Shown piece by piece: positions 2,001 to 61,254 of a stretch of DNA of 64,000 bases (position 1 is the first letter of the stretch; every line of letters starts with the position of its first letter). Below the pieces are notes generated by a model. That model worked only from the letters and a program-made list of their open reading frames with translations. It was not told the DNA's origin and did no database searches. Position numbers and translations under genes: made by a program. This DNA comes from Patescibacteria group bacterium (GTDB taxonomy: Bacteria; Patescibacteriota; Patescibacteriia; Magasanikbacterales; GWA2-37-8), in NCBI GenBank assembly GCA_041651015.1, contig JBAZKA010000004.1, positions 1,010 to 65,009 on the forward strand, read 5' to 3'.

Positions 2001-5000
2001 TTGTAATAATTATCAGCGGTGACACTGATGCTGCCATCAACAACTAATTTTTCATTTGGTGTGGTGGTGCCGATGCCGACGTTGCCGGACACGGCAACAG
2101 CAAGGTAATCCGTACCACCAAAGCCACCACTATCAATTTTAAAAGCGTAATTATCATCGGCGTCTATACCGGTTGCGAATGATTGGCTCGCCGGCCTGTT
2201 GTAATAAAGAATCTCAGCATGACCACTCGCATTATCTTGCCGTAGATATACCATTGGCGCTCCATTGCTCGCATCGTTCTCATACACCCCGAAGTCGGTT
2301 TCCGTGGCGCCAGATGCTGAAGAAGTGCCAACATGGATACCATTCAAAAACGCGGATTTGCCTGATGACATAATTCTTGTCGGCGGAGAGTTGGGGTCAG
2401 AGGCGCTTGTACCAAGAGCGATGAAGCCAATATAATTTCCACTATTATTTAAATTGCCGATAAACGCGGTTTGCGTAGCACCGGCAAACAAAGAAATGCC
2501 GTTTATAGATGAAACCGAGGCTGAAACGTCAATCGCCAATCTGACTGAGGGAGTAGAAGTGCCAATCCCCAGCCGATTATTTGTATCATCCCAAAAGAAA
2601 TTGGAATTGTCTTGCGTTAATTTTCCACTGGATGATGCAAAGACCACTGAGCCGACGGTCAGGCCGCCCGTATCGGTTGCTAAAATTCCCAGCGACGAAG
2701 TGGATACCCAATTCGGCGCAGATGCGCCGTTTGATTGCAAAACGTATCCTAATGTACCGGCATTGCCATTAGTTCGTAATGCGCCGGACAAATTCATGTC
2801 GCCGGAAATTGATAACGGATATGATGGCGTGGTGGTATTGATACCAACATTGCCACCGAGAAGAGCGATGGTATTATTTTGAGAGATAGTTTTTGATGTG
2901 GAAGAAACATTTACACCAAAAGAATTATTACCATTGACGGTCAAATTTTGCCCGAACGCGGCGCTGTTGCTGCCGCCGGCAACAGTTAAATTACCAAATG
3001 CAACGCTATAAGTCCCGCTCGCGTATGTGCCATAACCAAAAGCCGCACTGGCTTCGCCGCTGGCTGTCACACCATTTCCAAAAACCGCGCCATATTGTCC
3101 ACTCACGATATTCCCCCAACCACCGCCGGCAAAACCGGCGGAAACATTAACAGTATTATAACCGCCGCCGGCGACAAAAGAGTAAAAGCCACTAGCTTTG
3201 TTTGCCCAACCAGCGGCAAAAGCATCGGTGCCGCTGTAAACTTCATTATTATAACCAAAAGCGGCCCCGCGGGTGCTGGACACAATATTCCCCTCGCCAA
3301 AAGCAACACCGTTCGTACCAGGAACGTTATTTTCATAGCCAAAAGCGCTGGAATAGTTTCCATTGACAGTATTATTTTCACCAAATATAACTGTGGCTCG
3401 ACCCGCGAGATTATTGCCGGCACCACCGACCACACTGGCAAAGGCGGTACTGGACACATTATTATTGGAACCAAAAACCGCGGAATAATCAGCGCCATAA
3501 CTTGTGGATGCGGCAACATCATTACCAGTACCAGAAACTAATGCACCGGTGGAATATACATTGTTAAGGACGCCAAAAACCGTATCGCCCCACCCGGACT
3601 CTGTATTCCCTTCGCCGGCGACAAAAGAATATGTGCCAAACACAAAGTTGTCGGCACCAAACGCCGCTGAATACTCGCCGATATTTGCATCATCCCAGTC
3701 GTCTCCGGTGACAGTCCCTGCTCTAAACGCCGATTTCTCGGGATACCACATCATCCTTGTGCCCGCGCCCTCAACTTGAAGCGCGTTGCCGTCGTCGAAT
3801 GTACCAGCGGCGACGATTGCGCCGGTTCCACCGACATAAAGTTGCGCTAAAGGATTTGTGCTATCAATACCAATTTCACCGTCGTCATCCATAAATAAAA
3901 TTCCCGTACCGGTGCTGTTAAAAATCCCAAAAGAATCATCACTGTTGATATTTAAATCAACGTAATTATTTGTATCATAGCCCATCCTCATAGCCTTGCC
4001 TGATTCATACAACGAAGTCGGGGTCATGATCGGCGAAGTCAACCAGTTATCACCGTTGTTGTCAGTATAAGCATTTGTGGCGACATCTTTGTAAACATTA
4101 TAACTAAAAGGGTTGGAGGTATCATATTTTAATACACGATAACCGGTCGCCCCGTCCACCGCATCCCATGTCCACTCAAGCCTGTAGAGGTTTGACGAAC
4201 CGTTGTCGGTCCAATTACTGGAAAGATTATCGTATGACGATGAGTAAACTCTGCCTGCTGTCGTGTCCTTGAAGGCATAAACGCGCAAGTTGTGCGAATA
4301 ACTATTCGCCGTATAATACTGCTTTGAGGCATACACCGCACTGACTTGCACATTTGATGGAGTACCGACAGTAATCAACGCACCAGCCCCGGTTACTACC
4401 TGAATTTTACCGGCCGGCGTGGTGGTGCCCACGCCGATTGAACCACCATTAAAAATTCCATTGCCGCTGATTCTAAATCCGGCCACTTGATCAGCGCTTG
4501 TTTGATTTTGAATATAATTATTTGAACCCGATGAAGAAGCAAAACCGAGTGACGAAGTGGATACCCATGCCGGCGCAGATGTTCCGTTTGACTGTAAAAT
4601 ATGTCCGGCTGTGCCGGCGTTGCCGTTGATCCGTAATGCGCCAGACAAATTCATGTCGCCGGATACGGTCAAAGGAAAACTGGGAGTGGTCGTGCCCACG
4701 CCAACATTGCCCCCAAGAAGAGCAATCGTGTTTGGTTGCGAAATTATTTGCGCAGTGGAAGATACATTGACGCCAAACGAACCTTCTCCGCTCACAGTTA
4801 AATATTGCCCGAAAGCCGTCGTATAATTACCAGATACTTCGTTGTATATACCGCCGCCCACAAATGAATAATAACCAGTTGAGGTGTTGTACATGCCACC
4901 TCCAATAAAACTGGAGATACCATCATTATAATTAGACTCGCCACCTCCGATAAAACCACTGATACCACTATTAGTATTGTTTTCACCGCCGCCGATAAAA

Positions 5001-7498
5001 GCATTGGTATTTTGTACCTGATTATATGAACCGCCAACTACGGCGGCATACCGGGCGCTTGATGTATTGTATCGGCCTCCACCGATAAAAGACGCGTCAT
5101 TTGTTGTTACATTGCGGAAACCACCGCCGATAAAACCATAATCATGACTGGAGGTGTTGTACATTCCGCCACCGACAAATGAATACAAACCCGAAGCGGT
5201 GTTATACACACCACCGATTACCGCAGAGAATTGAGCGGAGGCATTCGCATACGCACCTATAGCTACAGTGCCTGTCGCCGAGGCAGTACTACCGCCGACC
5301 ATCGCCACTGAATATGATCCGACATTCGCGTCATCCCATTCGTTCCCCATGGCGATTCCGGCTCTAAACGCCGCCTTACGTGGATACCAAATCATACGGG
5401 TGCCGGCACCGGATGATGACAAGGTCGCACCCGAACCAAAAGTTCCATGCGCGATAATACCGCCGTCGCCACCGATGGTAAGCTTGAATTCCGAAGTTGT
5501 TGTTCCGATAGTCGTGGTGCTCATCGTACCGATGCCTCCAATTCTAAATCCGGCCACTTGATCAGCGCTTGTTTGATTTTGAATATAATTATTTGAACCC
5601 GATGAAGAAGCAAAACCGAGTGACGAAGTGGATACCCATGCCGGCGCAGATGTTCCGTTTGACTGTAAAATATGTCCGGCTGTGCCGGCGTTGCCGTTGA
5701 TCCGTAATGCGCCAGACAAATTCATGTCGCCGGAAATTGATAACGGATATGATGGCGTGGTGGTATTGATGCCGACATTTCCGCCGAGAAAAGCAATGAC
5801 ATTATTTTGCGATAAAACCGCGGCAGTGGAAGAAGCATTTACACCGAAAGAATAGGCGCCTGAAACGGTAAGATTACGGCCAAAAGCAGTAGAAACCCAT
5901 CCGCTGGAGGTATTTGACCAACCGAAAACAGTCGAATACGTATCCCCTGCTACATTATGATTACCAAAAGCCGTAGCACCAATGCCACTGGCTATATTTT
6001 CCTGGCCAAAAACGGTAGCGCCTTGCTGACTTGCAATATTGTAACCACCAAAAGCAGATGAATAGAGACCGCTGGCAATATTTCGTGTTCCCAAGGCCGT
6101 AGCGTATTGACCGCTTGATGTATTGTAGTTACCAATAGCAGTAGCGCCTCGGGCATTGGCGATATTATCGCCGCCTAAGGCAGTCGCATAATAGCTGCTA
6201 GCAGTATTACCGTAGCCCATTGATATTGTATAGTCGCTACTAGCAATATTACCACTTCCGACCGCGAACGATCCTTCTCCGGATGCAGTATTATTTGCGC
6301 CCATGGCGATTGATCCCAAGCCGCTAGCCATGGTATTTAGGCCACTCGCAAAAGACCATCCACCAATATTCGCGTCATCCCATTGGTCAGCCCCCGATCC
6401 CATATCATAGGTGGTGCCAGCTCTGAAGGCACCTTTCCGTGGATACCAAATCATGCGCGTGCCCGTACCAGTGGTAGCAAGCACTTGGCCCTGCGGATCG
6501 AGCACCGGAGTACCCACACCACGCGCGATAATACCGCCGTCGCCACCGATGGTAAGCTTGAATTCCGAAGTCGTTGTTCCGATAGTCGTGGTACTCATCG
6601 TACCGATGCCTCCAATTCTAAAATTCGCGGCTTGATCTACTGAATTTTGATTTTGGATAAAATTGCCGGAAGTGGAAGTGACATACCCGGCATCGTTATT
6701 TAGCAGAGAAACGTTTTCTCCCTCAATCATCACATTGCTCGCGAGCGAAGTTGAAGCAATAGTCGTAGTCGCCATCCACGTGCCGCCGTTCAAATATGCA
6801 AATCCGGTCCAACCTGATGAATCAGCGCCCGTGCCGCCGCGCAAAGTGGAAATGAGCGAACCGTTCCAAGTACCGGAAGCGACATTGCCAAAATAAGAAT
6901 TGCCAAAGACGCTAAGAAACCCGGAAACAGTAGCGCCCGTGGAAGTGACATTATTGAAATTAAAATTTCCCGACGCATCAGAGACCGGAATATAAGTCGT
7001 GCTGGTGTTTGTGTTCGGTGCGACTCCCTCCAAATATTTTGAATTAAACGCGTATGGCGTAGCCGTCATTTTTTTTCTCGGTGTTAGCGTCTCGGCGCCG
7101 ATTCTCACTTCCAAATATACATCAGAATAATTTTTAAAAATATTTGCATCCAAAGCATTGGTGCCGGATTCGCCAAAATTAATTGTAAATAATCCTTGAA
7201 TCGGAGTGATACCAACATAGCTCGGGACGCCAACTGTACCGCTCGCTGAATAAAGAGCTGTACCGCCGGTTAAGGAATCATACAAAATAAAATACATCTG
7301 TTGGGTGGTGCTGGCCGACGAACCATTTACCAATAATTTTCCTTGATACGAAATCGTGGATGGTGCGCTGGCTGACTTGGCTTGAAAAGCCGGCGACAAC
7401 AAAATTAAAATAGCGACAAAAATAGTCGCCGATATACTTAAAAAATTCGGGAATTTGCTCCGATTTACTGAATTTTCTTTCGCCGACTCTGTGTTCAT
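1..7498 (-). CDS. Giant secreted/anchored repeat protein (tail-fibre / YadA-head-like beta-roll repeats); start codon inside window at 7498-7496, 3' end runs off the window (>=2499 aa)
   Basis: My translation of the minus strand from ATG at 7498 gives MNTESAKENSVNRSKFPNFLSISATIFVAILILLSPAFQAKSAS... with a hydrophobic N-terminal anchor. It is followed by 14-aa repeats (S/A)xA(F/L)GxxN(I/T)ASGxx typical of Hep_Hag/YadA-head-like beta-rolls. Region 1-2000 carries 17-aa (51-nt) repeats NxAxGxxALxxNTTGxx. The same frame was checked at 1798. Every listed minus-strand ORF in 1-7000 lies in a different frame, consistent with one uninterrupted ORF that is not listed because it is incomplete. Confidence 0.6.
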   Translation of the reverse strand, partial: MNTESAKENSVNRSKFPNFLSISATIFVAILILLSPAFQAKSASAPSTISYQGKLLVNGSSASTTQQMYFILYDSLTGGTALYSASGTVGVPSYVGITPIQGLFTINFGESGTNALDANIFKNYSDVYLEVRIGAETLTPRKKMTATPYAFNSKYLEGVAPNTNTSTTYIPVSDASGNFNFNNVTSTGATVSGFLSVFGNSYFGNVASGTWNGSLISTLRGGTGADSSGWTGFAYLNGGTWMATTTIASTSLASNVMIEGENVSLLNNDAGYVTSTSGNFIQNQNSVDQAANFRIGGIGTMSTTTIGTTTSEFKLTIGGDGGIIARGVGTPVLDPQGQVLATTGTGTRMIWYPRKGAFRAGTTYDMGSGADQWDDANIGGWSFASGLNTMASGLGSIAMGANNTASGEGSFAVGSGNIASSDYTISMGYGNTASSYYATALGGDNIANARGATAIGNYNTSSGQYATALGTRNIASGLYSSAFGGYNIASQQGATVFGQENIASGIGATAFGNHNVAGDTYSTVFGWSNTSSGWVSTAFGRNLTVSGAYSFGVNASSTAAVLSQNNVIAFLGGNVGINTTTPSYPLSISGDMNLSGALRINGNAGTAGHILQSNGTSAPAWVSTSSLGFASSSGSNNYIQNQTSADQVAGFRIGGIGTMSTTTIGTTTSEFKLTIGGDGGIIAHGTFGSGATLSSSGAGTRMIWYPRKAAFRAGIAMGNEWDDANVGSYSVAMVGGSTASATGTVAIGAYANASAQFSAVIGGVYNTASGLYSFVGGGMYNTSSHDYGFIGGGFRNVTTNDASFIGGGRYNTSSARYAAVVGGSYNQVQNTNAFIGGGENNTNSGISGFIGGGESNYNDGISSFIGGGMYNTSTGYYSFVGGGIYNEVSGNYTTAFGQYLTVSGEGSFGVNVSSTAQIISQPNTIALLGGNVGVGTTTPSFPLTVSGDMNLSGALRINGNAGTAGHILQSNGTSAPAWVSTSSLGFASSSGSNNYIQNQTSADQVAGFRISGNGIFNGGSIGVGTTTPAGKIQVVTGAGALITVGTPSNVQVSAVYASKQYYTANSYSHNLRVYAFKDTTAGRVYSSSYDNLSSNWTDNGSSNLYRLEWTWDAVDGATGYRVLKYDTSNPFSYNVYKDVATNAYTDNNGDNWLTSPIMTPTSLYESGKAMRMGYDTNNYVDLNINSDDSFGIFNSTGTGILFMDDDGEIGIDSTNPLAQLYVGGTGAIVAAGTFDDGNALQVEGAGTRMMWYPEKSAFRAGTVTGDDWDDANIGEYSAAFGADNFVFGTYSFVAGEGNTESGWGDTVFGVLNNVYSTGALVSGTGNDVAASTSYGADYSAVFGSNNNVSSTAFASVVGGAGNNLAGRATVIFGENNTVNGNYSSAFGYENNVPGTNGVAFGEGNIVSSTRGAAFGYNNEVYSGTDAFAAGWANKASGFYSFVAGGGYNTVNVSAGFAGGGWGNIVSGQYGAVFGNGVTASGEASAAFGYGTYASGTYSVAFGNLTVAGGSNSAAFGQNLTVNGNNSFGVNVSSTSKTISQNNTIALLGGNVGINTTTPSYPLSISGDMNLSGALRTNGNAGTLGYVLQSNGASAPNWVSTSSLGILATDTGGLTVGSVVFASSSGKLTQDNSNFFWDDTNNRLGIGTSTPSVRLAIDVSASVSSINGISLFAGATQTAFIGNLNNSGNYIGFIALGTSASDPNSPPTRIMSSGKSAFLNGIHVGTSSASGATETDFGVYENDASNGAPMVYLRQDNASGHAEILYYNRPASQSFATGIDADDNYAFKIDSGGFGGTDYLAVAVSGNVGIGTTTPNEKLVVDGSISVTADNYYKYNGVNLAYASTSLNNYYFGNAGNLTMTGASNTASGYQALYSNSTGYGNIANGSLALYNNTTGYANVASGYQALYSNTTGAGNIANGYMAMGSTTANNTSNYNVANGYYALHDNTTGDFNIASGWHSLRYNTTGDRNVAIGRAPLRNNTTGSYNVASGDSALYDNITGNYNVGIGSYSLYSNTTSDANVGIGYQALYNNIVASNTAVGYQALYSNTTGVGNIAMGYLSLYANQTGGYNSAYGINALYANTTGNYNTALGAGAISLNQTGSFNTAVGVGALATATSSDDNTAVGYGALYVNSSGSNNTAMGRGAMLDNTLGSYNTGIGRGALKGNQIGNGNVALGYYSLYDATSSNANIALGYNSLRYNTASSNTAVGYEALYSNTTGVMNTAQGYQAMYSNTTGYRNSAFGYQAMGSTTAIGTGMYDSAMGYQALFNNTSGMYNSAIGYQALYNNTTGAYNTALAYDALYNNTTGGNNTAIGLTALYQNITGSYNTALGVNALRISTTSLANTAIGYGSLYNNTVSSNTAVGYEALYDNTAGFGNVAQGYQALHDNTTGDYNVGVGNDAVRYNTTGNNNVGVGYIALGSSVTGSNNVGIGVYTLRYFDGDSNNTAIGYNAGAQGSGGSYNTMLGSESDISGTVTGGTAVGYAALVSHNYATAIGNGA
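4480..6640 (-). repeat. Two near-identical ~1071-bp tandem modules inside the giant gene (partial third copy near 2690-2880)
   Basis: Identical stretches at 4480-4680 vs 5550-5740 and ~5450 vs ~6530. Antisense ORFs 4557.. and 5628.. share 33 identical N-terminal residues. Module boundary encodes ...GGNVGI(N/G)TTTPS(Y/F)PL(S/T)(I/V)SGDMNLSGALRINGNAGTAGHILQSNGTSAPAWVSTSSLGF... Confidence 0.65.
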
Positions 7499-7583
7499 AA
7501 GTCGGTTAATTTCAAGACATCTATATTATAGCATTTTTTACGCCTCAAAAGAATGTTTTTTTGCGAAGTTATCCACAGAAATA

Positions 7584-7691
7584 GTTCATAAAGTTATAAA
7601 GTTTTTAAAGTTTGTAAAGTAAAAAATCTCCCGTTTCCACGGAAGACTTTTGTCTGCTTTATAACTTTATGAACTTTATAACTTTATGAAC
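7584..7691. repeat. AT-rich inverted repeat built from AACTTTATAA/TTATAAAGTT units, between the giant-gene start and the trxA stop
   Basis: Left arm gttcataaagttataaagtttttaaagtttgtaaagt (7584-7620). Right arm ctttataactttatgaactttataactttatgaac (7667-7691) is its reverse complement. Right arm overlaps the trxA stop codon. Confidence 0.55.
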
Positions 7692-8010
7692 TAAGACATC
7701 GGTCAATCATCTCCATTAATTTTTCCTTCTGCAATCCCCCGTTTAATGTATCAACCGGCGCGCCATTCTTAAAAACAATAAATGTCGGCACGCTCATCAC
7801 TTCCCACTTGCCCGCCACCTCCATATTTTCATCCACGTTTAATTTTCCAATTTTAATATTCTTGCCTTCATAATCCTTGGCCAGCTCATCCACAATCGGA
7901 CCCATCATCTGACACGGCCCGCACCACGGCGCCCAAAAATCCACCAAGACCGGCACGTCGGATTTCAAAACTTCGGCTTCAAAATTAGAATCAGTAAAAA
8001 CTTTTTCCAT
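7684..8010 (-). CDS. trxA: Thioredoxin
   Basis: 108 aa, WCGPC active-site motif, typical thioredoxin length and sequence. Confidence 0.9.
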   Translation of the reverse strand: MEKVFTDSNFEAEVLKSDVPVLVDFWAPWCGPCQMMGPIVDELAKDYEGKNIKIGKLNVDENMEVAGKWEVMSVPTFIVFKNGAPVDTLNGGLQKEKLMEMIDRCLSS

Positions 8011-8024
8011 AAGTAAATAATTAT

Positions 8025-8105
8025 GTACGAAATACGAAAGCTACGAAACTTACAAAAATGTTTTCATTACACGTTCGTATATTTCGCAGTTTTCGTATTT
8101 CGTAC
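8025..8105. repeat. Solo (empty) copy of the TACGAAA-heptamer inverted-repeat element (MITE-like)
   Basis: gtacgaaatacgaaagctacgaaa (8025-8048) and tttcgcagttttcgtatttcgtac (8082-8105) are near-perfect reverse complements with ~33 bp between them. The same arms flank the GxxExxY gene at 44932-45422. Confidence 0.5.
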
Positions 8106-8106
8106 A

Positions 8107-10125
8107 TTAACTTAAAACTAATTTTTTTTCTTTTTTCTCTTCTTTGTACGCTTCCAAAACATCGCCAACTTCCACATGCAACTTACCCTCATACTGCATA
8201 CCGCATTCGGTTCCTTCCGGCACTTCGTTCACATCCTGTTTGCTCATTTGTAATTTAAAAATTTTACCCGCACCAATTACCTCGCCGGCGCGTTTTACGC
8301 GAACCTTAGCGTCTTTTTGCAATTTTCCCTTTTCGGCCCGGCCGCCCAAAATCATTAAATTTTTCTCGGTGCGGAAAATCGCCATGACTTTAAAATTACC
8401 CAGCTCGGTGACAATCACTTCAGGATTCAAAAGTTTTTCCAATTCGTCTTTAACAAAATTTAATAAGTCGTAAATAATTTTGTATGGTTTAAAATTTACA
8501 CCGCGCGTCACAATCATTTCACTGGCGATGGAAGTCGGCGAAACGTTGAAGCCAAACAAAATTCCTTTGGTCGTTTCCGCGAGAGCCACATCATCCGGGC
8601 TGACATTACCCAAACCCTTGCCTACGACTTTGACCGACACTTCATCATTTTTTAATTTTTCCAGTGAGCCGATAATCGCTTCCAATGAACCGAGAGTATC
8701 GGCTTTCACCACCACATTCAAATATTTTTTCGGTTCATCGGGATTATCATTATTGGTTGAAGAAACCGGGCGTTGCTCAGCGCCGGATTGTTGCGTGCGT
8801 TTGGATTTCAGGTCAATTTGCGTTGCGCTGCCCGCTCCGCCCACGTCCAACACATCGCCGACTTGCGGAGCGACTTTGAAACCCAAAATTCTGATTGGTG
8901 AACTCGGTCCGGCTTCGGTCAAATTTTCTCCGCGATAATTTTTCATGGCCCGGACTTTGCCGTAAATTTCTCCGTTTACCACCAAGGCATCGTTTAATTT
9001 TAGAGTACCGGTCTGCACCAAAATCGTGGCCACCGGGCCTTCACCCTTGTCCACGTGCGCTTCAATCACCGTGCCCGCGGCCGCGCGATTAGGCTCGGCT
9101 TTGATGTCGGCTTCGTGCATATCAGCGAGCAAAAGCAAAGTATCCAATAGTTTATCAATATGTAAATTCTGTTTGGCGGAAATTTCCACCATTGGCACTT
9201 CTCCGCCCCATTCATCGGAAATAATTCCGTGCTGGGAAAGTTCGGTGCGCACACGCATGGCATCAGCGCCTTCTTTGTCAATTTTATTTATAGCCACGAT
9301 CACCGGCAATTTAGCCGCTTTGATAATATTGATCGCCTCCACGGTCTGCGGTTTCACGCCATCATCAGCTGCCACCACCAGGATGGCGATGTCCGCCACT
9401 TTGGCGCCTCGGCTGCGCATAACGGTAAAGGCCTCGTGGCCCGGAGTATCAATAAAAGTAATGGCGCGTTTTTCTTTGTTCTTCGGATCAGTCCAAATAG
9501 TTTGGTACGCGCCGATGTGCTGAGTAATACCACCGGCTTCGGTGTCAATAATATTTGCGTTTCTAACCGCATCCAATAATTTTGTCTTGCCATGGTCAAC
9601 GTGGCCCATGACTATGATGACCGGCGCGCGCATGGTGGTTTTTTCCGAAAGAATTTTTTCCAAATTTTGTGTGTGGGTTTGGTCTGTGTTTTGCGGAGCG
9701 GCTCCCTCGGCAATCGCCTCCACGGTAAAGCCCAAATCCTCGGCAATAATCGCGGCCGTGTCTCGATCCAGAAATTCATTCATGGAAACAAGAATGCCGT
9801 TTTTCATCAATTCCACAATTAATTTATTGAGCGGAACATTCAAAACATTGGATAAATCTTTGACCGTGATACGCCCGGGAATTTTAACCGTCGCCCCGCT
9901 CTGACGGCGAGCTTCTTTTTCCAGTTCTTTTTGTTTTTCCCGTTCCTTTTTTTCCCGATCTTCCAAGACGAATTTTATCCGGCGCCATTCGCGTTGAATT
10001 TGCTGAGCCACACGGTCATCAATCTTTACGGCGCGGGCGCCAAAATCAAAACCAAACTCGGGCAATATTTGCAGAAGTTTTTGCGGGTGGACTCGGAGCT
10101 GGCGGGCAAGGTCGGTGACGTTCAT
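8107..10125 (-). CDS. infB: Translation initiation factor IF-2
   Basis: 672 aa. GTP-binding domain (GHVDHGKT, DTPGH, NKID) and the IF-2 C-terminal beta-barrel. Confidence 0.95.
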   Translation of the reverse strand: MNVTDLARQLRVHPQKLLQILPEFGFDFGARAVKIDDRVAQQIQREWRRIKFVLEDREKKEREKQKELEKEARRQSGATVKIPGRITVKDLSNVLNVPLNKLIVELMKNGILVSMNEFLDRDTAAIIAEDLGFTVEAIAEGAAPQNTDQTHTQNLEKILSEKTTMRAPVIIVMGHVDHGKTKLLDAVRNANIIDTEAGGITQHIGAYQTIWTDPKNKEKRAITFIDTPGHEAFTVMRSRGAKVADIAILVVAADDGVKPQTVEAINIIKAAKLPVIVAINKIDKEGADAMRVRTELSQHGIISDEWGGEVPMVEISAKQNLHIDKLLDTLLLLADMHEADIKAEPNRAAAGTVIEAHVDKGEGPVATILVQTGTLKLNDALVVNGEIYGKVRAMKNYRGENLTEAGPSSPIRILGFKVAPQVGDVLDVGGAGSATQIDLKSKRTQQSGAEQRPVSSTNNDNPDEPKKYLNVVVKADTLGSLEAIIGSLEKLKNDEVSVKVVGKGLGNVSPDDVALAETTKGILFGFNVSPTSIASEMIVTRGVNFKPYKIIYDLLNFVKDELEKLLNPEVIVTELGNFKVMAIFRTEKNLMILGGRAEKGKLQKDAKVRVKRAGEVIGAGKIFKLQMSKQDVNEVPEGTECGMQYEGKLHVEVGDVLEAYKEEKKEKKLVLS

Positions 10126-14040: not shown

Positions 14041-14394
14041 ATGGGAGAGGTAGTTCGCTTGAAAACACGTTATCTCATCTGGCCAGAAAACGCCGATACA
14101 ATGGAAAAAATCGCCGTTCATCTTATCGAAAGAGGACGGCCAATCACGGAGGACAGAATCACTTCCTACCGCGATTGGAAAGGAAACGAGCTCACCCTGA
14201 TTGAGATAGAAAAGCCGGATGCTTATTATTTCAAGGATATGAAGAGCGGTTGCTGGCTTAAATTCCGTCTATTCAAGCAGGACCCTGGAAGAACTATTCG
14301 GGAGATAACATTCTCATTTCCGAAAAAGTCGCCGCGGCGCGCGCGTCTCGGAATCAAACAGGTCGCCGCCAAGGGCACGACCGATCACGCATAG
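14041..14394 (+). CDS. Hypothetical protein (117 aa)
   Basis: GAGGAGGA RBS 6 nt upstream of ATG 14041. Terminator hairpin with GCAA tetraloop plus T-run at ~14428-14452. Local GC is higher than surroundings. Confidence 0.5.
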   Translation: MGEVVRLKTRYLIWPENADTMEKIAVHLIERGRPITEDRITSYRDWKGNELTLIEIEKPDAYYFKDMKSGCWLKFRLFKQDPGRTIREITFSFPKKSPRRARLGIKQVAAKGTTDHA

Positions 14395-14550: not shown

Positions 14551-15057
14551 ATGGAAAGAATCGGCAGACTGCCACAAGTTGCCAGTTTACTGGGTATAAC
14601 AATCCCCGAAGAACTCTTGAAAGAAATAGAAAACGGGTTAACGCTCGCGGACATCATAGAGAACCCACGTCGGCCTTTACCGGACATGCTGGATATTGAT
14701 GACGTGATTTTACTCTGGGTATACCTGGAAAACCGCAGAGATGAGCTGAATAAGTACGTGCAACAATTTCTCGGCTCCATTCCCCCGGACAAACGTCCAC
14801 CCGAAAATGATTTTGAAGCGTGGAAACAATTCCGCGCCGACGCCTATGATGATTCGTTCGAGCAAAAAATCGCCATGATGCAACTGATACGAATCGCAAA
14901 GACATTTGGAAATTGGCTGTACATTATCAACTTTGCCAAGCACGAATGTGTAAAAATAATCTCGGCCATTGCTCTGCGAGACAAGGCTCAAGGAGAAATC
15001 CAGGAACAAATGGCTGGGCGAAAACTGGAAGAAGTCGGTATTGGTTCATTGCCATAG
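14551..15057 (+). CDS. Hypothetical protein (168 aa)
   Basis: AGGAGG RBS upstream of ATG 14551 (MERIGRLPQV...). No recognisable family. Confidence 0.5.
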   Translation: MERIGRLPQVASLLGITIPEELLKEIENGLTLADIIENPRRPLPDMLDIDDVILLWVYLENRRDELNKYVQQFLGSIPPDKRPPENDFEAWKQFRADAYDDSFEQKIAMMQLIRIAKTFGNWLYIINFAKHECVKIISAIALRDKAQGEIQEQMAGRKLEEVGIGSLP

Positions 15058-36800: not shown

Positions 36801-38668
36801 CCGACATAATTATTGGTTGATGAAACGACCATGGTCGCGGTTTGATTGCCAGTGGTTCCAACCGTCACGTTGTTTGAAGAAGCATTATAAGTCGCGTAAA
36901 TGGAATATTTCAAAGCGCCTAGTGTCGGCGAGGTAAACGAGGACGGCCAGGTGCCGTATGTTTGCGTCTTTGACAGACTCTGATTTGTGGCGCCAGTAGT
37001 ATAATAAAAATAATTTTGGCTGTCATTATCATTTTTTAACAACCAATAGGTGGAACTGCTGATAGTCGGCGAGGTTGATAATTTATAGGCATACCAAGCT
37101 TTTGTGGTGCCGACAGCGGTAGACGCCGAATTCGCCACCAAATTATAGCTGGAATTATAGATACCATAACCCGCATAGTAGCCGGAATCCGGATACATAT
37201 AGGCGGTGGTTGTGACGACTGTAGCGCCGGCCGCGCCCGAGCCGGAATCAAATTTTGAACCGACCATTCTTCCATTTATTGACGAAGTATAACTCGTCCC
37301 GGCCGTGGTGTTGCCAAAGGTCGGGTCAACGATTACCGGATAAACCGCCTCATCCAAAAAATATTGCGGCACGGTGATGGTCATTTTTCCGCTAACCTCG
37401 TCAATATTTAATTCGCACCAAGTATATCGTCCGCTCGCGTCAAATGCCTGCGGACGATAAATTGAAAACGCCATGCCGGTGCCATAATTTTTGCCACCCA
37501 TGGCTGAGTAATCTCCTTGCAAACCGCCCTTATAATAAACCGCGTAAGACCCAACCACGTTTATCGGACGATGATATTCATGGCATTCGGTCGGACTGCA
37601 ACTTGGGTCGCTCATTTCCACATTCAAAGGCGGCTGATAGAAAAACTCTAAATTTTCCGTAGCAATATCAAATTCAAAAACATTAGTGCTCGGTTTTGTC
37701 TTTAAAGCAAATTCAAATTCATAACCATCAACATTTTCACTCATCCCGTCGGAATATTTTTCATTCGGGATAGTGACAGTTTTATCATAAAAAATATATT
37801 GACGATGCGATGTTTCATATTTGATAACTTTCTCTTCGCCCAATTCATCTCTGTCAATAAACAATGCTTTCTCGGTGGACACACTTGAATCAGACAATGG
37901 TTCGTTCAGGATAGTGGAAAAATTTGCGAAAATTGCTTCTTCACCCTGAGAGTATTGAGTAATAGATACGACATCTTCACTCGGAGTATTAGTCGGGGTA
38001 TCAACGACAGTTGTGTCGGTTAAAACAGTTTCTTCGCTCAAAACCGTATCCGCCGTAGTAGTAGTGATACCGGAGTCACCAGTGACTGTGTCATCACCGG
38101 TTTCCGGCGTCAAAATAATACCTGAGGATGTCGCGACCTCCGCCTCCACCTTTACACCCAACACTTCGGCCGGCGCTTTTGTCTCTACCAAGGTATTGCC
38201 TGATATTTCCCCCTCAAACTTCGGAATTATTTTCATACTCGCTTCCCCATCCCAGCGTTCAATGGTTATTGCCGGAGAAAACGAATCGCCTTCGGGCGCG
38301 CCGATCTTGTAGGCCACACCGTCAATTTCTTTGGCCGGCAAAACAAAGGCTGATCCTTCCTGGCGATATTTGTCACGCAATGGCGAGGCGGCTAATTTAC
38401 GAGACAAAGAGATTGAATCCATAGCGCTTTCATCCGGAGCAAACAAACTGGCTGTCACAATTCCGACCAAGGAATTATCCTGATACCAAGGTATGTTTGA
38501 TGCAGCCGAACGCGTATCGCTCCACACCGGCCAGCCGTATACAAAAACAGCGATGAATACGCCCAAACAGGCGAAAATAATCGCTTTTTCAAAAAATAAT
38601 TTATTTTTTAGATACGTCAAAAAATTTCGCCGCATAAAAGAACTAAATCCATTTTTATTTTTTCTCAA
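33890..38668 (-). CDS. Giant membrane-anchored surface protein (1592 aa) with internal tandem ~160-aa repeats and a C-terminal WxL-like/TasA-like module
   Basis: N-terminal TM (AIIFACLGVFIAVFVYGW). Ser/Thr/Gly-rich beta-rich sequence. C-terminal ...VSVTVSDGVVSYGTIAENS...TITNNGNV...CTWTLATSNG...YVHRFCNDTDLDC...NYTAM. Start overlaps the stop of the upstream gene (translational coupling). Confidence 0.6.
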   Translation of the reverse strand: MRKNKNGFSSFMRRNFLTYLKNKLFFEKAIIFACLGVFIAVFVYGWPVWSDTRSAASNIPWYQDNSLVGIVTASLFAPDESAMDSISLSRKLAASPLRDKYRQEGSAFVLPAKEIDGVAYKIGAPEGDSFSPAITIERWDGEASMKIIPKFEGEISGNTLVETKAPAEVLGVKVEAEVATSSGIILTPETGDDTVTGDSGITTTTADTVLSEETVLTDTTVVDTPTNTPSEDVVSITQYSQGEEAIFANFSTILNEPLSDSSVSTEKALFIDRDELGEEKVIKYETSHRQYIFYDKTVTIPNEKYSDGMSENVDGYEFEFALKTKPSTNVFEFDIATENLEFFYQPPLNVEMSDPSCSPTECHEYHRPINVVGSYAVYYKGGLQGDYSAMGGKNYGTGMAFSIYRPQAFDASGRYTWCELNIDEVSGKMTITVPQYFLDEAVYPVIVDPTFGNTTAGTSYTSSINGRMVGSKFDSGSGAAGATVVTTTAYMYPDSGYYAGYGIYNSSYNLVANSASTAVGTTKAWYAYKLSTSPTISSSTYWLLKNDNDSQNYFYYTTGATNQSLSKTQTYGTWPSSFTSPTLGALKYSIYATYNASSNNVTVGTTGNQTATMVVSSTNNYVGGAFYIVGDATSRNVTGISINEIGTVDAQNNLDNIKLYYELDTVTPYDCASVSYNGTETQYGSTDTDGFSASNGTSTFSGTVAVTSAQAMCVYAVVDVGSGAGEGQTIEIQITNPSTAVTISSGAVGPSSAVAITGSTALVSSVTVGTGGSQATGMTIPSTDNYVGGYFSIIENAGSRNVTGISIFENGTVDAQTDLDNIKLYYDLDATTPYDCASESYGGTETQFGSTDTDGFSAANGTSTFSGSVGISTTSAMCVYTVLDVASGATLGETLEIQISDPSTGVTVSSGTTGPSSTVAISGSTVFALPTISGSIGKTSDGWSGAIPVNMTLNGLSYLDYPYARASTTNSVGDNLYTNLTWDAIDGRYEGVIYPGSNFCNGCADPNTGTFRTTLQLSSSSNFSSIDYSTTTANFTTYITRRWNAISTAAMGNGAEFNPTWSVDHWNYEVADFSVNAAATYSNVAIAFPFHPTTSDINITSVSLAGTALSEGTAASTTDCWWWDSGHHTLYIQDNSMGTTYKTVAFSFTSDTDLFATRYDRLYTYNIGERLFYNGLVFANQFINTPMFGGGYEGAGEQVEMSCRNSSDNDVNLDCMERTAVVVNDTVRIDSSGYYAGDIKWKQDEWANYIVSEDDNSITTLVHSDGAANGWAQQLATGIDAYRYQTFYASKRYLKNVYTFTNASSTAYDYPLVWGREQWLGTDRNTNDKGWVAGETTSSTVERQITMSSLTKKWFTTYDTGIWAAMGVIFDQDDPATYGYYFQHSPVSSTIEWPLQVAVKSTNEADDIYFVRRWDDLPAGASTTFTFWQWGYCTTSLNAITTTIDKDYDEVNSVTPVVSVTVSDGVVSYGTIAENSSVSTIDLGDLQTITNNGNVTEDFAIKGQDGSGGGCTWTLATSNGADQYVHRFCNDTDLDCSSPPTNYTAMTTTYQNIDTNVAADGTTQFQLRLTAPSASTCYGEQDVDVTLLATQS
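35880..36860 (-). repeat. Two tandem ~480-490-bp coding repeats inside the giant surface gene
   Basis: Protein copies share ...NYVGG(A/Y)F(Y/S)I(V/I)...SRNVTGISI.ENGTVDAQ..LDNIKLYY.LD..TPYDCAS.SY.GTETQ.GSTDTDGFSA.NGTSTFSG... DNA at 35931-36045 vs 36421-36540 and at 36181-36330 vs 36665-36810 is clearly related. Confidence 0.6.
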
Positions 38669-39044
38669 TCTTCTTCGCCATTTTATAAATTTTGCCGGCT
38701 GTGGCCGAAACAGCTCTGTCCACCGCTTCTTTCGCTGATTCAGTATAATCCTCGGATTTATCCTCGGCCCAACTCTTTGCTTTTTTAATGGCCGCGTCTT
38801 TGACCGCCGTGCCCACTCCCTTGAACACCGAATTCATGGCAAAAGAAATCATCTCCACTTTTTCTTGGATAAAACCGATGGCGTCGGCCAAGGATTGCAG
38901 GCGGACGCGAAATTCTTCAATAATTTGGCTGGTATTTTTCAAAATTTTGCCCGCGTAATAAAACATCCAGCATAAAAAAACCGCCACCCAAATAATACAA
39001 AAAGAAATCACGATATACAAAATATCTTTTGATGATTCTATCAT
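38655..39044 (-). CDS. Small membrane protein with N-terminal TM and coiled-coil tail (DUF948-like), first gene of the surface operon
   Basis: LYIVISFCIIWVAVFLCWMFYYAG TM. Lys/Ala-rich helical tail. Stop overlaps the giant gene start. Confidence 0.45.
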   Translation of the reverse strand: MIESSKDILYIVISFCIIWVAVFLCWMFYYAGKILKNTSQIIEEFRVRLQSLADAIGFIQEKVEMISFAMNSVFKGVGTAVKDAAIKKAKSWAEDKSEDYTESAKEAVDRAVSATAGKIYKMAKKIEKK

Positions 39045-45428: not shown

Positions 45429-46328
45429 ATGTACTCTGAAATTTCCTCCAACAAAAGAAAATCAGTTTTGCTCGCGTGTATTTTTATCGCCATCATTATT
45501 TTCCTCGGCTGGATTTTTGACTATATTTATGGCGGGGGGCAAAGCTATAGCGGTATGATTTTTGCGATTCTTATCGCCCTTGTCATGACCATGATCTCAT
45601 ATTTTTCCGGAGACAAAATCGCTCTGGCCACGACCGGCGCCAAAGAAATTCAGCACGACGATAATAAATATTTATTTCACCTGGTGGAGAATCTTTGTAT
45701 CACCGCCGGCACGCCCATGCCGAAAATTTATGTAATTAATGACCCGGCCATAAACGCTTTTGCCACGGGGCGCGACCCCAAACACGCGTCCATCGCCGTA
45801 ACCGCGGGTGCTCTGCAAAAATTAACCAACGAAGAACTGGAAGGCGTAATTGCCCACGAATTATCCCATGTCAAAAATTATGACATCCGTTTTATGATGC
45901 TGGTCGCGGTTATGGTCGGGGCCATTTCCATTTTCGCCGACATCATGCTCCGCTCGGGCGGAATTTTCCGCGGCGGACGTGACAATGACCGCGAAGGCGG
46001 GTCGTCGCTTTTCGCGATTCTCATGATTGTCGGGATTATCCTCGCAATTTTGTCGCCAGTAATCGCTGAATTGATCAAACTGGCCATTTCGCGCAAACGC
46101 GAATATCTGGCCGATGCGTCGGGCGCTCTGCTCACCCGCTATCCCGAAGGGCTGGCCAGTGCTTTGCAAAAAATCGGCGATGAGAATCAGCCGATGAAAA
46201 AATCTTCTTCAGCCACGGCGCATTTATTTATTGCCAGCCCGTTTAGCGGAAAAAAATTAAAGAGTATATTTTCCACCCATCCACCCATTGAAGATAGGAT
46301 AAATAAATTACGGATGATGGGGAATTAA
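45429..46328 (+). CDS. htpX: Zinc metalloprotease HtpX (M48)
   Basis: HELSHVKNYD HExxH motif, multiple TM helices, C-terminal FSTHPPIEDRI. Confidence 0.9.
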   Translation: MYSEISSNKRKSVLLACIFIAIIIFLGWIFDYIYGGGQSYSGMIFAILIALVMTMISYFSGDKIALATTGAKEIQHDDNKYLFHLVENLCITAGTPMPKIYVINDPAINAFATGRDPKHASIAVTAGALQKLTNEELEGVIAHELSHVKNYDIRFMMLVAVMVGAISIFADIMLRSGGIFRGGRDNDREGGSSLFAILMIVGIILAILSPVIAELIKLAISRKREYLADASGALLTRYPEGLASALQKIGDENQPMKKSSSATAHLFIASPFSGKKLKSIFSTHPPIEDRINKLRMMGN

Positions 46329-46404
46329 AAAATGTAAAAAAAATTGGCGAAGTCCGCAGATGGAACTCGCCTTTTATGTTTGCGGGTTTAAGAAAGAACT
46401 CGGA

Positions 46405-46608
46405 TTATAGTCTTCTCACCGCGTGGAGAATATCGTCATCCCACGTGTCCACTGGGTCATCATCGCTGTCGCGATAGATGTCCTCGGACACATTCGGAAT
46501 CGCGTCGAACAGGTTATGTTCGGCCGCCCGCGTCAAGTGGCCTCTCCACCCCAGATCATTCATCGGCCTTACTTTTGCGCGCGCGTCATTCGCAGATTTT
46601 TCTCCCAT
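46405..46608 (-). CDS. Small hypothetical protein (67 aa, acidic C-terminus) in a GC-rich islet
   Basis: Strong SD GAGGAGGGG 5 nt upstream of the ATG on the minus strand. Local GC about 55%. Confidence 0.4.
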   Translation of the reverse strand: MGEKSANDARAKVRPMNDLGWRGHLTRAAEHNLFDAIPNVSEDIYRDSDDDPVDTWDDDILHAVRRL

Positions 46609-46632
46609 CTCACCCCTCCTCTTAACGCGGAA

Positions 46633-46866
46633 TCATTTTTCCGCGGTTGTTGAACCGCAGAGCATCATGGAAACGATCTTCTCTGCGCTGGGAATCCCCA
46701 ACAGATTACTTGCAATCCGCATTATTTCAGCGAGAGAAGCCCTTGCTGACGATGTGTCCGGAACAACGCTCCGCACCGGCAGTAAAACCGGTTGTCTCAA
46801 AACGATCCGGCCATGGGCGCCCCGATATTTACCGTGACCAGAAGACAAGTTTTGTCTTTTTCCCAT
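46633..46866 (-). CDS. Small hypothetical protein (77 aa) in a GC-rich islet
   Basis: Strong SD GAGGAGGG upstream of the second Met (MGKRQNLSSGHGKYRG...). Putative promoter TTGACA-17-TAAATT on the minus strand at 46933-46905. Confidence 0.4.
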   Translation of the reverse strand: MGKRQNLSSGHGKYRGAHGRIVLRQPVLLPVRSVVPDTSSARASLAEIMRIASNLLGIPSAEKIVSMMLCGSTTAEK

Positions 46867-47032
46867 TTGCGTCCCTCCTCTTTTTTGTTTTGCAAACAAG
46901 AGTCAATTTATCACATTTTAGTATAGCTGTCAATCCAGTAGAATGCCTACGGCCTCTACTGGACAAACAAAAACACCCGCCAATGAGGCGAGTGCCCAAA
47001 ACATTCCCAATCTAAGTTTGTTTATTATCTAA

Positions 47033-47527
47033 TCATTTTTCTTCATCGGAACCGACAACCAAGATCTTTCCGTTAACACGGATAATGACTGATTCGCGCA
47101 AAAAAATATTTAAATCTGTTGGCACGAGACCCCTTTTTTCAATTCCCGCATCAGTAATTGATACTTTCCAAATCGGAATAGTCGGTTTCCATTTATCCGG
47201 ATCAATTTCTTCCGGGGCTAAATTATAATTATCGCCATCTCTCCGAATAAATATGCGCTGTCCGCTTCTGGATGATACAGTGATATTTCTCGGCATTTCT
47301 ACCGGCCAATCTTTCATGTCCGGCGGATTCTTTATATGCCGACCGGGCTCCACCAATTCATCGCCTCCGGCGATTTTTTTATAATTCCGCTCTGCTTTTG
47401 CCCACAAATTTTCCAAAGTCGTCAAAATCATGCGCGCCTCGCGTTCGCGGGATTCTCCCGCTTCCCTATCATTCAATTTTGCCAACTCCTCCGGTGACAG
47501 TGGCGGAATTGATTCTTTTTCGGACAT
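47033..47527 (-). CDS. Hypothetical protein (164 aa)
   Basis: Clean ORF, 6-nt gap to the upstream ORF, so a two-gene operon. No family recognised. Confidence 0.5.
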   Translation of the reverse strand: MSEKESIPPLSPEELAKLNDREAGESREREARMILTTLENLWAKAERNYKKIAGGDELVEPGRHIKNPPDMKDWPVEMPRNITVSSRSGQRIFIRRDGDNYNLAPEEIDPDKWKPTIPIWKVSITDAGIEKRGLVPTDLNIFLRESVIIRVNGKILVVGSDEEK

Positions 47528-47533
47528 ATAAAA

Positions 47534-47878
47534 TTATTTTTTCTTCGGGCGGATTCGTCCGCGCACTACCGCGCCGAATAATTTATCAAATACCCGGACT
47601 TTGCGCACGGTATTGCGTTCGTTTTTAAGATACACCTCGCCTTCAAAACGGTCAATTTTGGTCACAATGTATTCAAAAGCGCGCATGTCCTCGCCGAGTT
47701 TGGCTTTATAAACATTTTTTAATTTAATCCCAGCGGTTTTTATCCGGTCGGCTATCTTTTGCTTCATCTCGTTCGCGACATCAACTAAGCCGTCTGCCAC
47801 TTTGCCAAAGGCGTCAGCCCGGCGTTTCTGCCAAGCACTGTCTTTGTTGCCTATTTTTCTGTGTTGTTTGATGGACAT
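47534..47878 (-). CDS. Hypothetical basic protein (114 aa)
   Basis: Clean ORF, Lys/Arg-rich. No family recognised. Confidence 0.5.
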   Translation of the reverse strand: MSIKQHRKIGNKDSAWQKRRADAFGKVADGLVDVANEMKQKIADRIKTAGIKLKNVYKAKLGEDMRAFEYIVTKIDRFEGEVYLKNERNTVRKVRVFDKLFGAVVRGRIRPKKK

Positions 47879-57901: not shown

Positions 57902-57922
57902 TAGTATCGCATATAAAAAAAC

Positions 57923-57968
57923 GCCGCCATCGGGAGTACCCTTTGGCGGACTTTTTGTTTTTTTTTGG
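57923..57968 (+). terminator. Intrinsic terminator after radA
   Basis: cgccgcca-(loop)-tggcgg followed by actttttgtttttttttgg. Confidence 0.6.
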
Positions 57969-57984
57969 AAATGAGGCGAGAATA

Positions 57985-58290
57985 TTAGGCGAGCACTTTT
58001 ACGCAGGGATGTTCCACGAGTTCACCGAAGAGCTTGCGGACATCTGCGAGTTTCTTGAACGTGATCACCCTACACTTGATTTGGCGATCGCGATCGTCCT
58101 TCCCGAATCGCCCGAAGATCTCCACGGAACGGCCGTTGAGCCGAGGCGCAGCCAAGCGCGCGTAGACGACCTGCGGACCAGATTGACCCTCCACGATCGC
58201 GGAAACCACCACGAAGTCCGCCCCTTCTTTTTTAAAATCATTGTCCGGACCCACGCGCAATTGATTCAATCCGTCCCATCTTGTTGACAT
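57985..58290 (-). CDS. Small hypothetical protein (101 aa) in a GC-rich islet
   Basis: Strong SD GAGGAGGG 6 nt upstream of ATG (MSTRWDGLNQ...). GC about 57%. The plus-strand alternative ORF has no RBS. Confidence 0.4.
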   Translation of the reverse strand: MSTRWDGLNQLRVGPDNDFKKEGADFVVVSAIVEGQSGPQVVYARLAAPRLNGRSVEIFGRFGKDDRDRQIKCRVITFKKLADVRKLFGELVEHPCVKVLA

Positions 58291-58498
58291 CTCCACCCTC
58301 CTCAAAAAATGTACTTGTGATGTTTTCACAGCCCCTCCGTGAAAACGAAAACGCTAAAATAATAGCACAAAATGAACCAAATGTCAAATATCCAATGCCA
58401 AATTACAAATAAAACCCAAAACCAAAAATCCAAATTTTGATATTTGATATTTAGGCTTGATTTGACATTGGAAATTGGAAATTTGACATTACTTACCC

Positions 58499-60774: not shown

Positions 60775-61254
60775 TCACTCCAAACAACCGAGAAGGGTTA
60801 CACGGATTTTTTTCGCCTCTTGATCAAACAAGGCGACGGCGCCATCCGCTAACTTCCACGGTTCGTAACCATAGTCATGCCATTTATTCAAAAAGGTAGC
60901 GTGAATCTGCCGGCAAACATGGTTAAACAAACTCATCGGCACCACAACGAACGAGGCATAAGCATCAGATCTCGCCACGGTATCGCAAATATCATAAACT
61001 ATATCTCCGAAACCCACATATTTTTGGTACCGATACTGCGGACAATTTTTCACCAATTCCCAGCCAAATTTTTCACACCGATCACCTGCCGGAACCAATA
61101 CACTTACGTTTTGCGGATTGCATAAAATCGGATAGATGCCTCTTTTCAATTCAACGATAAGCTGAGATTCATCATGGGAAAAATCATCATTTTTCAATGA
61201 GTCTGGAGGCGTAACAAGCTCGTGCGTAATTACAATAATTTTTCCTGGGCGCAT
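60775..61254 (-). CDS. Hypothetical protein (159 aa)
   Basis: AAGGAGG RBS upstream of MRPGKIIVITHE. Promoter TTGACA-17-TATATT on the minus strand embedded in the tRNA-Arg terminator hairpin (61306-61338). Confidence 0.5.
   Translation of the reverse strand: MRPGKIIVITHELVTPPDSLKNDDFSHDESQLIVELKRGIYPILCNPQNVSVLVPAGDRCEKFGWELVKNCPQYRYQKYVGFGDIVYDICDTVARSDAYASFVVVPMSLFNHVCRQIHATFLNKWHDYGYEPWKLADGAVALFDQEAKKIRVTLLGCLE

Follow-up and report, generated by a model that had tools for sequence, protein, structure and literature searches.

The subject of this analysis is a compact unit of two small open reading frames (ORFs), termed A and B, on the minus strand of a 64,000-nucleotide stretch of DNA (hereafter the window) from a Patescibacteria group bacterium of the Magasanikbacterales (contig JBAZKA010000004.1 of assembly GCA_041651015.1). 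The unit is located between the end of N164, a larger ORF on the same strand, and the convergent gene htpX, and its elements follow one another in the order promoter, 5' untranslated region (5'UTR), Shine-Dalgarno sequence (SD), ORF A, a hairpin with a stop codon in its loop, a second SD, ORF B, and terminator (Table 1). Very likely, the islet represents a genuine operon of two genes that is transcribed on its own and encodes lineage-restricted and unusually fast-evolving micro-proteins within a hypervariable island.

Expression signals of the A-B unit

A single promoter and a single terminator serve both ORFs, which are separated by an intergenic gap of 24 nucleotides (nt) that holds the hairpin and the second SD, and the two initiation contexts are nearly identical (AAGAGGAGGG, followed after 5-6 nt by ATGGGA). 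The -35 box, the TG upstream of the -10 box, the -10 box itself, and a 5'UTR of the form TTGTTTG(C)AAAAC.AAAA.GAGG are common to the window and to two diverged lineages, represented by the contigs L084 and L086. At the other end, the predicted terminator folds with -13.5 kcal/mol in the window, with -17.3 kcal/mol in L084, and with -21.2 kcal/mol in L002 (a perfect stem of 10-11 base pairs, bp), the latter contig belonging, together with L003, to a strain variant that is 98 % identical to the window. The intrinsic terminator that closes N164 upstream of the unit is 100 % conserved in L002/L003 and has equivalent hairpins in L084 and L086. Next to the -35 box lies an inverted repeat that reads CCGGTAGA..TCTACCGG in L086, where both arms have changed and pairing is retained; it is not present in L084. 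This palindrome may represent an operator or an RNA hairpin. A preliminary description of the locus, made from the sequence without database searches, had pointed out the two small ORFs of 67 and 77 amino acids (aa) with their near-identical ribosome binding sites, the dedicated promoter, and the 8-bp-stem hairpin upstream of it, all of which are confirmed here, the promoter being conserved in both diverged lineages and the hairpin being maintained in L086 by compensatory change. Two antisense ORFs (46478..46837 and 46647..47015 on the plus strand) were considered as genes and rejected, as they are devoid of promoter and SD. They share their third codon positions with the sense frame and thereby stay open passively, and owing to a 1-nt indel at the A-B junction the long antisense ORF is not kept as one unit in L084.

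Table 1. Features of the A-B unit and its surroundings (coordinates in the window unless a contig is named; descending coordinates follow the minus strand)
Feature	Position	Strand	Remarks
N114	47534-47878	-	conserved 114-aa Magasanikbacteria protein, no Pfam family
N164	47527..47033	-	164-aa gene, no known family; first gene of the variable island; starts 6 nt after N114
N164 intrinsic terminator	46997-46971 plus T-run (listed span 46962..46997)	-	11-pair stem; terminator scan
Inverted repeat CCAGTAGA-N12-TCTACTGG	46962-46935	-	8-bp arms; abuts the -35 box; distinct from the N164 terminator
Promoter TTGACA-17-TAAATT	46933-46905	-	TG upstream of -10; promoter scan, 10/12 consensus positions
SD of ORF A, GAGGAGGG	46873..46880	-	6 nt to ATG
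ORF A	46866..46633	-	77 aa
Junction hairpin CGCGGAA-AAATGA-TTCCGCG	46646-46626	-	stop codon of A in the loop
SD of ORF B, GAGGAGGG	46614..46621	-	5 nt to ATG; kept in L002 and L084
ORF B	46608..46405	-	67 aa
A-B terminator GGCGAGTTCC-ATCTGC-GGACTTCGCC plus T8	46371-46336	-	predicted intrinsic terminator
htpX	45429..46328	convergent to the A-B unit	Peptidase_M48 match
Slot ORFs of L005-L007	L005 8971-9222; L006 8990-9217; L007 9001-9204	-

The SDs of the unit stand out in a genome that is largely SD-less, as 38 of the 47 long ORFs of the window have no SD-like core upstream and GGAGG occurs in front of only two of them. The motif GAGGAGGG is found four times in the window as compared to 0.58 expected copies, a number that was reached in none of 100 shuffles, and in three of the four cases the start codon of a small ORF follows after 5-6 nt, namely that of A, of B, and of an ORF at 57985-58290. 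The strong SD in a weak-SD genome, as stated in the preliminary description, is hence borne out, although the trait is not confined to the islet, as about eight genes in the window have a strong SD. Among the genes with a strong GGAGG SD, seven out of eight are without a Pfam match (e. g., 14041-14394, 14551-15057, 38655-39044, and 60775-61254), and the conserved housekeeping genes of the window have AT-rich leaders. The ORF at 57985-58290 is part of a third unit of the same design (57920-58400, minus strand), which comprises a TTGACA-17-TATTAT promoter, GAGGAGGG, an ORF of 101 aa, and a terminator. Its product (isoelectric point, pI, of 9.6; GC content at third codon positions, GC3, of 0.65) belongs to no family and is listed by NCBI as hypothetical protein MFA5128128.1. 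It had been proposed as a relative of the islet, which holds for the design but not for the protein, since BLASTP gives no alignment to either A or B.

Coding status and properties of the two proteins

The main comparison for coding status is that between the window and the diverged syntenic locus L084, in which both reading frames are kept, an aspect that the preliminary description had left to be checked. The A homolog of L084 likewise has 77 aa (55-57 % identity, 57 % in the coding comparison), both of its indels are 3 nt long, and the proportions of synonymous and non-synonymous differences (pS and pN) amount to 0.414 and 0.235 (dN/dS ~0.47; Fisher p = 0.011). For B, with 48 % aa identity, pS is 0.80 (saturated) and pN 0.36 (Fisher p = 3e-7). 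All five indels inside A and B are multiples of three, and non-triplet indels occur only outside the ORFs, i. e., in the 5'UTR (2 nt, L002) and at the A-B junction (1 nt, L084). The in-frame indels, the conserved combination of SD and ATG, and the excess of pS over pN together point to translation. Furthermore, host codon usage favours the annotated frame over the other five for both ORFs, with B reaching 0.24 and thus the normal range (5th percentile of chunks of real genes, 0.165). B also displays clear coding periodicity (GC1/GC2/GC3 of 0.62/0.40/0.62), and its differences to L084 are distributed over the three codon positions as 28/24/39, with an excess at the third (p = 0.026). On these sequence criteria, B can be taken as certainly protein-coding, and A as very probably so.

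The same comparison places the two ORFs far apart from their surroundings. While N114, NUDIX, HtpX, and LemA are 89-97 % identical to their L084 counterparts (dN/dS 0.02-0.08) and N164 is 70 % identical (dN/dS 0.26), A and B are, as judged by these rates, under weak purifying selection and change 5-10 times faster than their neighbours. Even the 98 % strain variant L002/L003 differs from the window at 17-18 positions of the operon, whereas the 500 nt upstream are identical; about six of these differences are non-synonymous, three are synonymous, and the rest fall into the SD spacers and the terminator.

The two products differ markedly in character. Protein A is strongly basic (pI 10.9, net charge ~+7) with one Cys, and an AlphaFold2 model, built from a two-sequence alignment, predicts a disordered stretch of 37 N-terminal residues followed by a helix (38-56), a turn, and a second helix (61-69), the helices having a predicted local distance difference test (pLDDT) score of 80-86. 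Protein B is acidic (pI 4.7, net charge ~-6), above all in its C-terminal half, hydrophilic (grand average of hydropathy, GRAVY, of -0.9), and without Cys; with a mean pLDDT of 55 and short helices only, it is predicted to be largely disordered. In NCBI, B is the hypothetical protein MFA5128117.1 (WC457_03915) and N164 the hypothetical protein MFA5128118.1 (WC457_03920); these two locus tags are consecutive, which means that A is missing from this annotation, and A is predicted by the JGI, ENA, and Logan gene callers.

Neither A, B, nor N164 has a credible match in Pfam, PHROGs, PADLOC, or NCBIfam, the best library matches (DpdK, E 0.03, for A; bPH_5, E 0.029, for N165 of L084) staying below the cut-offs, and a truncated A gave nothing in Pfam even at E values up to 10. 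Profile sequence searches of the PDB yielded no match for A and only a chance topoisomerase match for B (E 1). In a word-indexed search of 5.8 billion proteins, A and B return only themselves and a 96 % variant. When 1.84 billion representatives were scanned exhaustively with B by HMMER, a single diverged homolog came up, namely P0011 (84 aa; 46-50 % identity; E 2.8e-5, or 1e-8 in the pairwise comparison), which occupies the syntenic position on L084. Three large repeat proteins (P0008-P0010) that were matched to B by HMMER turned out on inspection to be low-complexity or repeat artefacts. The absence of an obvious family and the acidic C-terminus of B, both noted at the outset, are therefore confirmed by the library and PDB searches. 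In its physicochemical type, B may be likened to acidic disordered partners (DNA-mimic or anti-repressor proteins) and to hydrophilins, being short, hydrophilic, acidic in its C-terminal half, and presumably co-expressed with a basic partner; it bears no sequence or fold relation to any of the described members.

Several observations weigh against the explanation favoured below. The codon-usage score of A, 0.017, lies at the lower end of what real genes show, its differences to L084 are spread evenly over the codon positions (19/22/23), and the NCBI pipeline left it uncalled. The 564-nt transcript folds better than its shuffles (z of -4.2 and -3.5 in two runs), so that a constraint on the RNA is possible. 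The B homolog of L084 has a net charge of ~0 as a consequence of a basic N-terminal extension, and the charge contrast between A and B is hence only partly conserved. Moreover, the evidence spans three lineages only (window, L084, and L086). Finally, no 16S rRNA gene, and so no 3' end of the host 16S rRNA, lies within the window, and an anti-SD motif is present in only 48 % of Parcubacteria 16S genes, part of this group being devoid of it (PMC9297842).

A type II toxin-antitoxin (TA) system or a toxin-immunity pair, as contemplated in the preliminary description, would assign to A the role of a ribbon-helix-helix (RHH) antitoxin that autoregulates via the palindrome and to B, or to a membrane peptide, that of the toxin or partner. 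The locus does resemble RHH-antitoxin systems such as RelBE, ParDE, and CopG-like/VapBC in that two small, adjacent, coupled genes with a palindrome flanking the promoter lie in an accessory, fast-diverging region, and the corresponding islands of relatives contain an IS30-like transposase, an NYN nuclease, and a diversity-generating retroelement. By eye, the C-terminal part of A is also RHH-like (VRSVVPD...LLGIPSAEKIVSMML / VRSVVPD...SLAEIMRIASNLLGIPSAEKIVSMML), its segment ...LLGIPSAEKIV... resembling RHH helices 1 and 2, and the sole Foldseek match of the A model in the PDB is the antitoxin VapB11, although with an E value of 9.9. An RHH profile built from nine sequences, which retrieves Arc, Mnt, CopG, ParG, ParD, NikR, RelB, MetJ, and FitA from the PDB, aligns the helix-turn-helix segment of A in the expected register, but the hhalign probability of 0.4 % (E 0.14) is not significant. 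In addition, no TA or defence model is matched, no toxin fold is found at the locus, and the acidic, predicted disordered B with its 67 aa is unlike known toxin folds. The putative DNA-binding part of A is C-terminal, with nothing after it for binding a toxin, and L086 has the palindrome and the promoter without A. Taken together, we regard this identity as unlikely.

The variable island around the unit

Comparison of the interval between N114 and htpX across relatives reveals how variable the surroundings of the unit are. On L084, the order is PGM, NUDIX, N114, N165, a membrane peptide of 56 aa (TM56), the A homolog, and the B homolog, converging on htpX and LemA; TM56 is absent from the window, and the gap falls exactly between two SDs. 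In L004, which stands for the nearest reference species, N114 and htpX converge on a common terminator, with neither N164 nor any small ORF in between. N164 co-occurs with the small-ORF operon in three of three lineages, i. e., the window, L084 (70 % aa identity), and L086 (43-45 %), and is absent from L004-L008. A and B are always found together, neither of them occurring in a lineage without the other. On L086, N114 and PGM are 95 % and 87 % identical to the window proteins and the N164 homolog only 45 %. The expression socket of L086 (palindrome, promoter, 5'UTR, and SD) is 76 % identical to that of the window at the nucleotide level, and instead of A and B it is followed by two membrane peptides of 61 and 60 aa. 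That this identity of the socket is maintained next to so diverged an N164 speaks for rapid local turnover rather than for recent import.

Other strains of the L086 lineage have an NYN nuclease and other ORFs beside htpX. In the strain variant L002 (JGI 3300014204), homology to the window ends at 46337, after the B terminator, and the place of htpX is taken by an IS30-like transposase (HTH_38) together with a large adhesin-like ORF rich in repeats (1058-2053). On L086, the socket with its small ORFs is directly followed (5454-8235; ENA GROS21 scaffold_1025) by a family-less ORF of 300 aa, a split RVT_1 reverse transcriptase, and bAvd, which make up a diversity-generating retroelement within the same island. 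N114, which was found 58-69 % identical in L004-L008, is no paralog of N164, as the two share no similarity; in L086, the step in divergence between them is sharp and coincides with the 6-nt gene boundary. All neighbours within 5 kb (PGM, NUDIX, N114, N164, HtpX, PD-(D/E)XK, and LemA) are housekeeping or family-less genes, and the relatives of HtpX among species-representative genomes are nearly all Candidatus Magasanikbacteria (best identity 79 %). From these comparisons, the socket appears to be conserved by descent within the lineage, and the locus as a whole presents itself as a hypervariable accessory slot in which the expression socket is conserved and the mini-cistrons are exchanged, without any recognisable mobile element.

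In L005-L007, which stem from other Magasanikbacteria, the gap between N114 and htpX is filled by one unit with a TTGACA promoter, a strong SD, a GC-rich ORF for a highly charged, hydrophilic protein of 67-83 aa (GRAVY -1.2 to -1.6), and a terminator. These slot ORFs form a tiny family of their own, with only four clusters among 5.8 billion proteins and with the motifs Y-x-P-R-F-D-G, S-W-H-P-E, and E-E-x-R-L-V/I. It is conceivable that the slot holds one ancient gene that evolves very fast and encodes a hydrophilic, disordered, abundantly made small protein of the stress-, nucleoid-, or ribosome-associated type, B being a diverged positional ortholog of the L005-L007 ORFs and A a lineage-specific addition. 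The single unit of the same design at the same place would fit this scenario, and so would the pace of divergence, as the slot ORFs are mutually just 28-37 % identical and B is already down to 48 % identity where HtpX keeps 90 %. However, orthology of the slot ORFs to A or B was rejected by profile hidden Markov model and hhalign comparisons, the slot-family model missing B and the alignment of the B family to the slot family reaching a probability of just 0.8 %; moreover, the slot of L004 is empty and the socket of L086 holds membrane peptides. We thus give a common ancient gene little credence.

Recently acquired foreign cargo of phage or plasmid origin fares no better; the preliminary description had suggested horizontally acquired cargo. 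The accessory nature of the block of N164, A, and B stands, as L004, the closest reference species, has none of it and the content of the island varies, and an IS30-like element abuts the unit in the strain variant. The codon usage of A is atypical, and the strong SDs of the window sit mostly on family-less genes. The foreign composition, in contrast, is weak: GC content had been put at ~55 % against ~43 % in the flanks, which is overstated, since 46405-46900 has 52.0 % (B 54 %, A 51 %) as compared to a window mean of 45.3 % (standard deviation 3.8; z = 1.8, top 2 %), and 14 other non-overlapping 496-nt windows, including the adjacent 3' half of htpX, are at least as GC-rich. Against 0.27-0.55 in long genes, GC3 is ordinary for A (0.50) and only mildly high for B (0.62). 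No relatives of A, B, or N164 were detected in 2.9 million viral contigs, in 50,697 phage records, or in 72,556 plasmids (the latter two searched by tblastn), and an N164 profile found nothing in a metagenome scan. The borders of the islet are free of integrase and tRNA genes and of direct or inverted repeats beyond short, chance-level matches, and the socket is conserved in three lineages with the same flanking genes. Recent import from a phage or plasmid is accordingly rather improbable.

A separate observation concerns the first part of the window, where positions 600-7700 are repeat-rich, contain no ORF longer than ~180 aa on either strand, and have no Rfam match. The repeats comprise 68-nt units with a 51-nt periodicity at 600-1903 and units of 270-300 nt at 2688/4545/5616 and 5445/6519 with a spacing of ~1071 nt. 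This stretch may be a decayed or misassembled gene for a giant repeat protein, or something else.

The junction hairpin and a possible mode of action

The hairpin at the A-B junction is the one well-supported RNA element of the locus. Its 5' arm consists of the last codons of A (T-A-E-K), and it folds with -10.7 kcal/mol in the window (range -8.7 to -11.2 kcal/mol), leaving the next SD unpaired. The same stop-in-loop module (GCGGRAAAATRAYYYCGC), in which the codons for (T/H)-A-(E/G)-K form the 5' arm, the stop lies in an AAAT(G/A)A loop, and the 3' arm follows, is found after four different ORFs in three lineages, i. e., after TM56 and A in L084, after A in the window, and after the 60-aa membrane peptide in L086. 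Its stems vary in sequence and keep pairing (GGAA/TTCC, GGGA/TCCC, and GGGA/TTTC, with A:U replaced by G:C and G:U). Since unrelated peptides share the encoded tail, the hairpin rather than the peptide end is the conserved object. Used as a search pattern, the junction hairpin retrieved only the already known L002 contig from the metagenome scan, and the socket and junction motifs were not found in 80 other loci compared from the candidate phyla radiation (CPR).

In having a stable hairpin between its cistrons, immediately ahead of the following SD, the locus resembles translationally coupled operons with intercistronic stem-loops (mRNA stabiliser or processing hairpins). As the stop codon of the upstream gene lies inside the hairpin, terminating ribosomes would have to melt it. 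Unlike in those operons, the hairpin sequence of this locus dictates the four final codons (T/H-A-E/G-K) of proteins that are unrelated to one another and accompanies them, and in L086 it also ends the last small cistron, with no SD after it. A second parallel is offered by integron arrays, which likewise combine one conserved promoter with a variable series of short ORFs, a hairpin after each, and an ORF set that differs between close lineages. The attC sites of integrons are imperfect repeats of 60-140 bp with extrahelical bases. The locus hairpin, in contrast, is 20 nt long, has a stem of 6-7 bp and a loop of 6 nt, and takes in the stop codon; furthermore, there is no integrase among the neighbours of the locus, each cistron has its own SD, and no circular-cassette logic is evident.

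Could a structured RNA, or the hairpins themselves, be the selected product, with the ORFs, and A in particular, being incidental? The folding signal of the transcript is stronger than that of any of 11 coding controls (z of +0.9 to -2.5), dS of A is lower than that of the neighbour genes in the comparison with L084, and A shows no excess of differences at third positions. An alignment of the A region, in which 94.8 % of cells pair, contains three compensatory pairs (reached in 21 of 500 shuffles) along with many wobble-compatible changes, although it consists of three sequences from which the structure itself was derived. However, the antisense strand gives a z of -2.8, indicating that part of the folding signal stems from composition and palindromes. 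Searched across the entire window, Rfam yields no match at the gathering threshold, and 46250-47050 gives nothing above chance level (up to 12 bits) at E values up to 10; ARAGORN detects no tRNA or tmRNA near the islet. Given, in addition, the coding periodicity of B and the signs of translation described above, an RNA product is very unlikely. A precursor of a ribosomally synthesized and post-translationally modified peptide (RiPP) or a bacteriocin (a precursor peptide was among the suggestions of the preliminary description) is conceivable in view of the small ORFs with strong expression signals and of the membrane peptides that sister lineages have in the same operon, but can practically be dismissed, since the neighbours within 5 kb include no enzyme for modification, no leader peptidase, and no ABC exporter, and since the ORFs have no double-Gly or other recognisable leader, and no Cys-rich core (one Cys in A, none in B). 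For each of the classical readings, as TA system, RiPP, integron, or foreign cargo, at least one of the defining features that were tested is missing.

Our preferred explanation, which we hold with only slightly more confidence than doubt as a whole, joins the coding operon in a variable island to a mechanism in which A and B are translationally coupled and bind as a pair. The near-consensus promoter and the perfect SDs, in a genome mostly devoid of SDs, would make for strong and roughly balanced production of A and B, and the hairpin just ahead of the SD of B would be melted by ribosomes that finish A, which would couple translation of the second cistron to that of the first. In the most likely arrangement, A would be a small nucleic-acid- or partner-binding protein that is complexed with, or restrained by, the acidic B; this joint action of A and B as a binding pair is put forward tentatively, as a possible but doubtful part of the model. 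The fast divergence might result from the low structural constraint of disordered proteins, from a role in an arms race, or from both, and the repeated SD and hairpin modules could provide short homologies for the gain and loss of mini-cistrons, as exemplified by TM56 between its two SDs.

A bolder and decidedly speculative extension is that the locus exemplifies an undescribed form of small-protein gene shuffling in CPR bacteria, in which a conserved socket would be followed by exchangeable mini-cistrons, each with its own GAGGAGGG SD and a stop-in-loop hairpin that fixes the last four codons. The modules would then serve as recombination joints and at the same time as devices for coupling or mRNA processing, and yield strain-specific, highly expressed micro-proteins of membrane, basic helical, or acidic disordered type, probably for interaction with hosts or phages.

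As it stands, the unit is a new operon of small proteins that belong to no known family, and it is built in an unusual modular fashion. The CPR/Patescibacteria combine small genomes with many family-less genes whose origin, turnover, and expression are poorly understood, and the locus offers a concrete and testable case. Should neither the pairing of A and B nor the generality of the layout hold, it would amount to one more lineage-specific hypothetical pair, with one member overlooked in the NCBI annotation. If, however, the two proteins turn out to be regulatory or antagonistic partners, or if the arrangement of socket and hairpins is general, the finding would bear on how small effectors diversify in episymbionts and also on the role of SD-led translation in genomes that are mostly SD-less.

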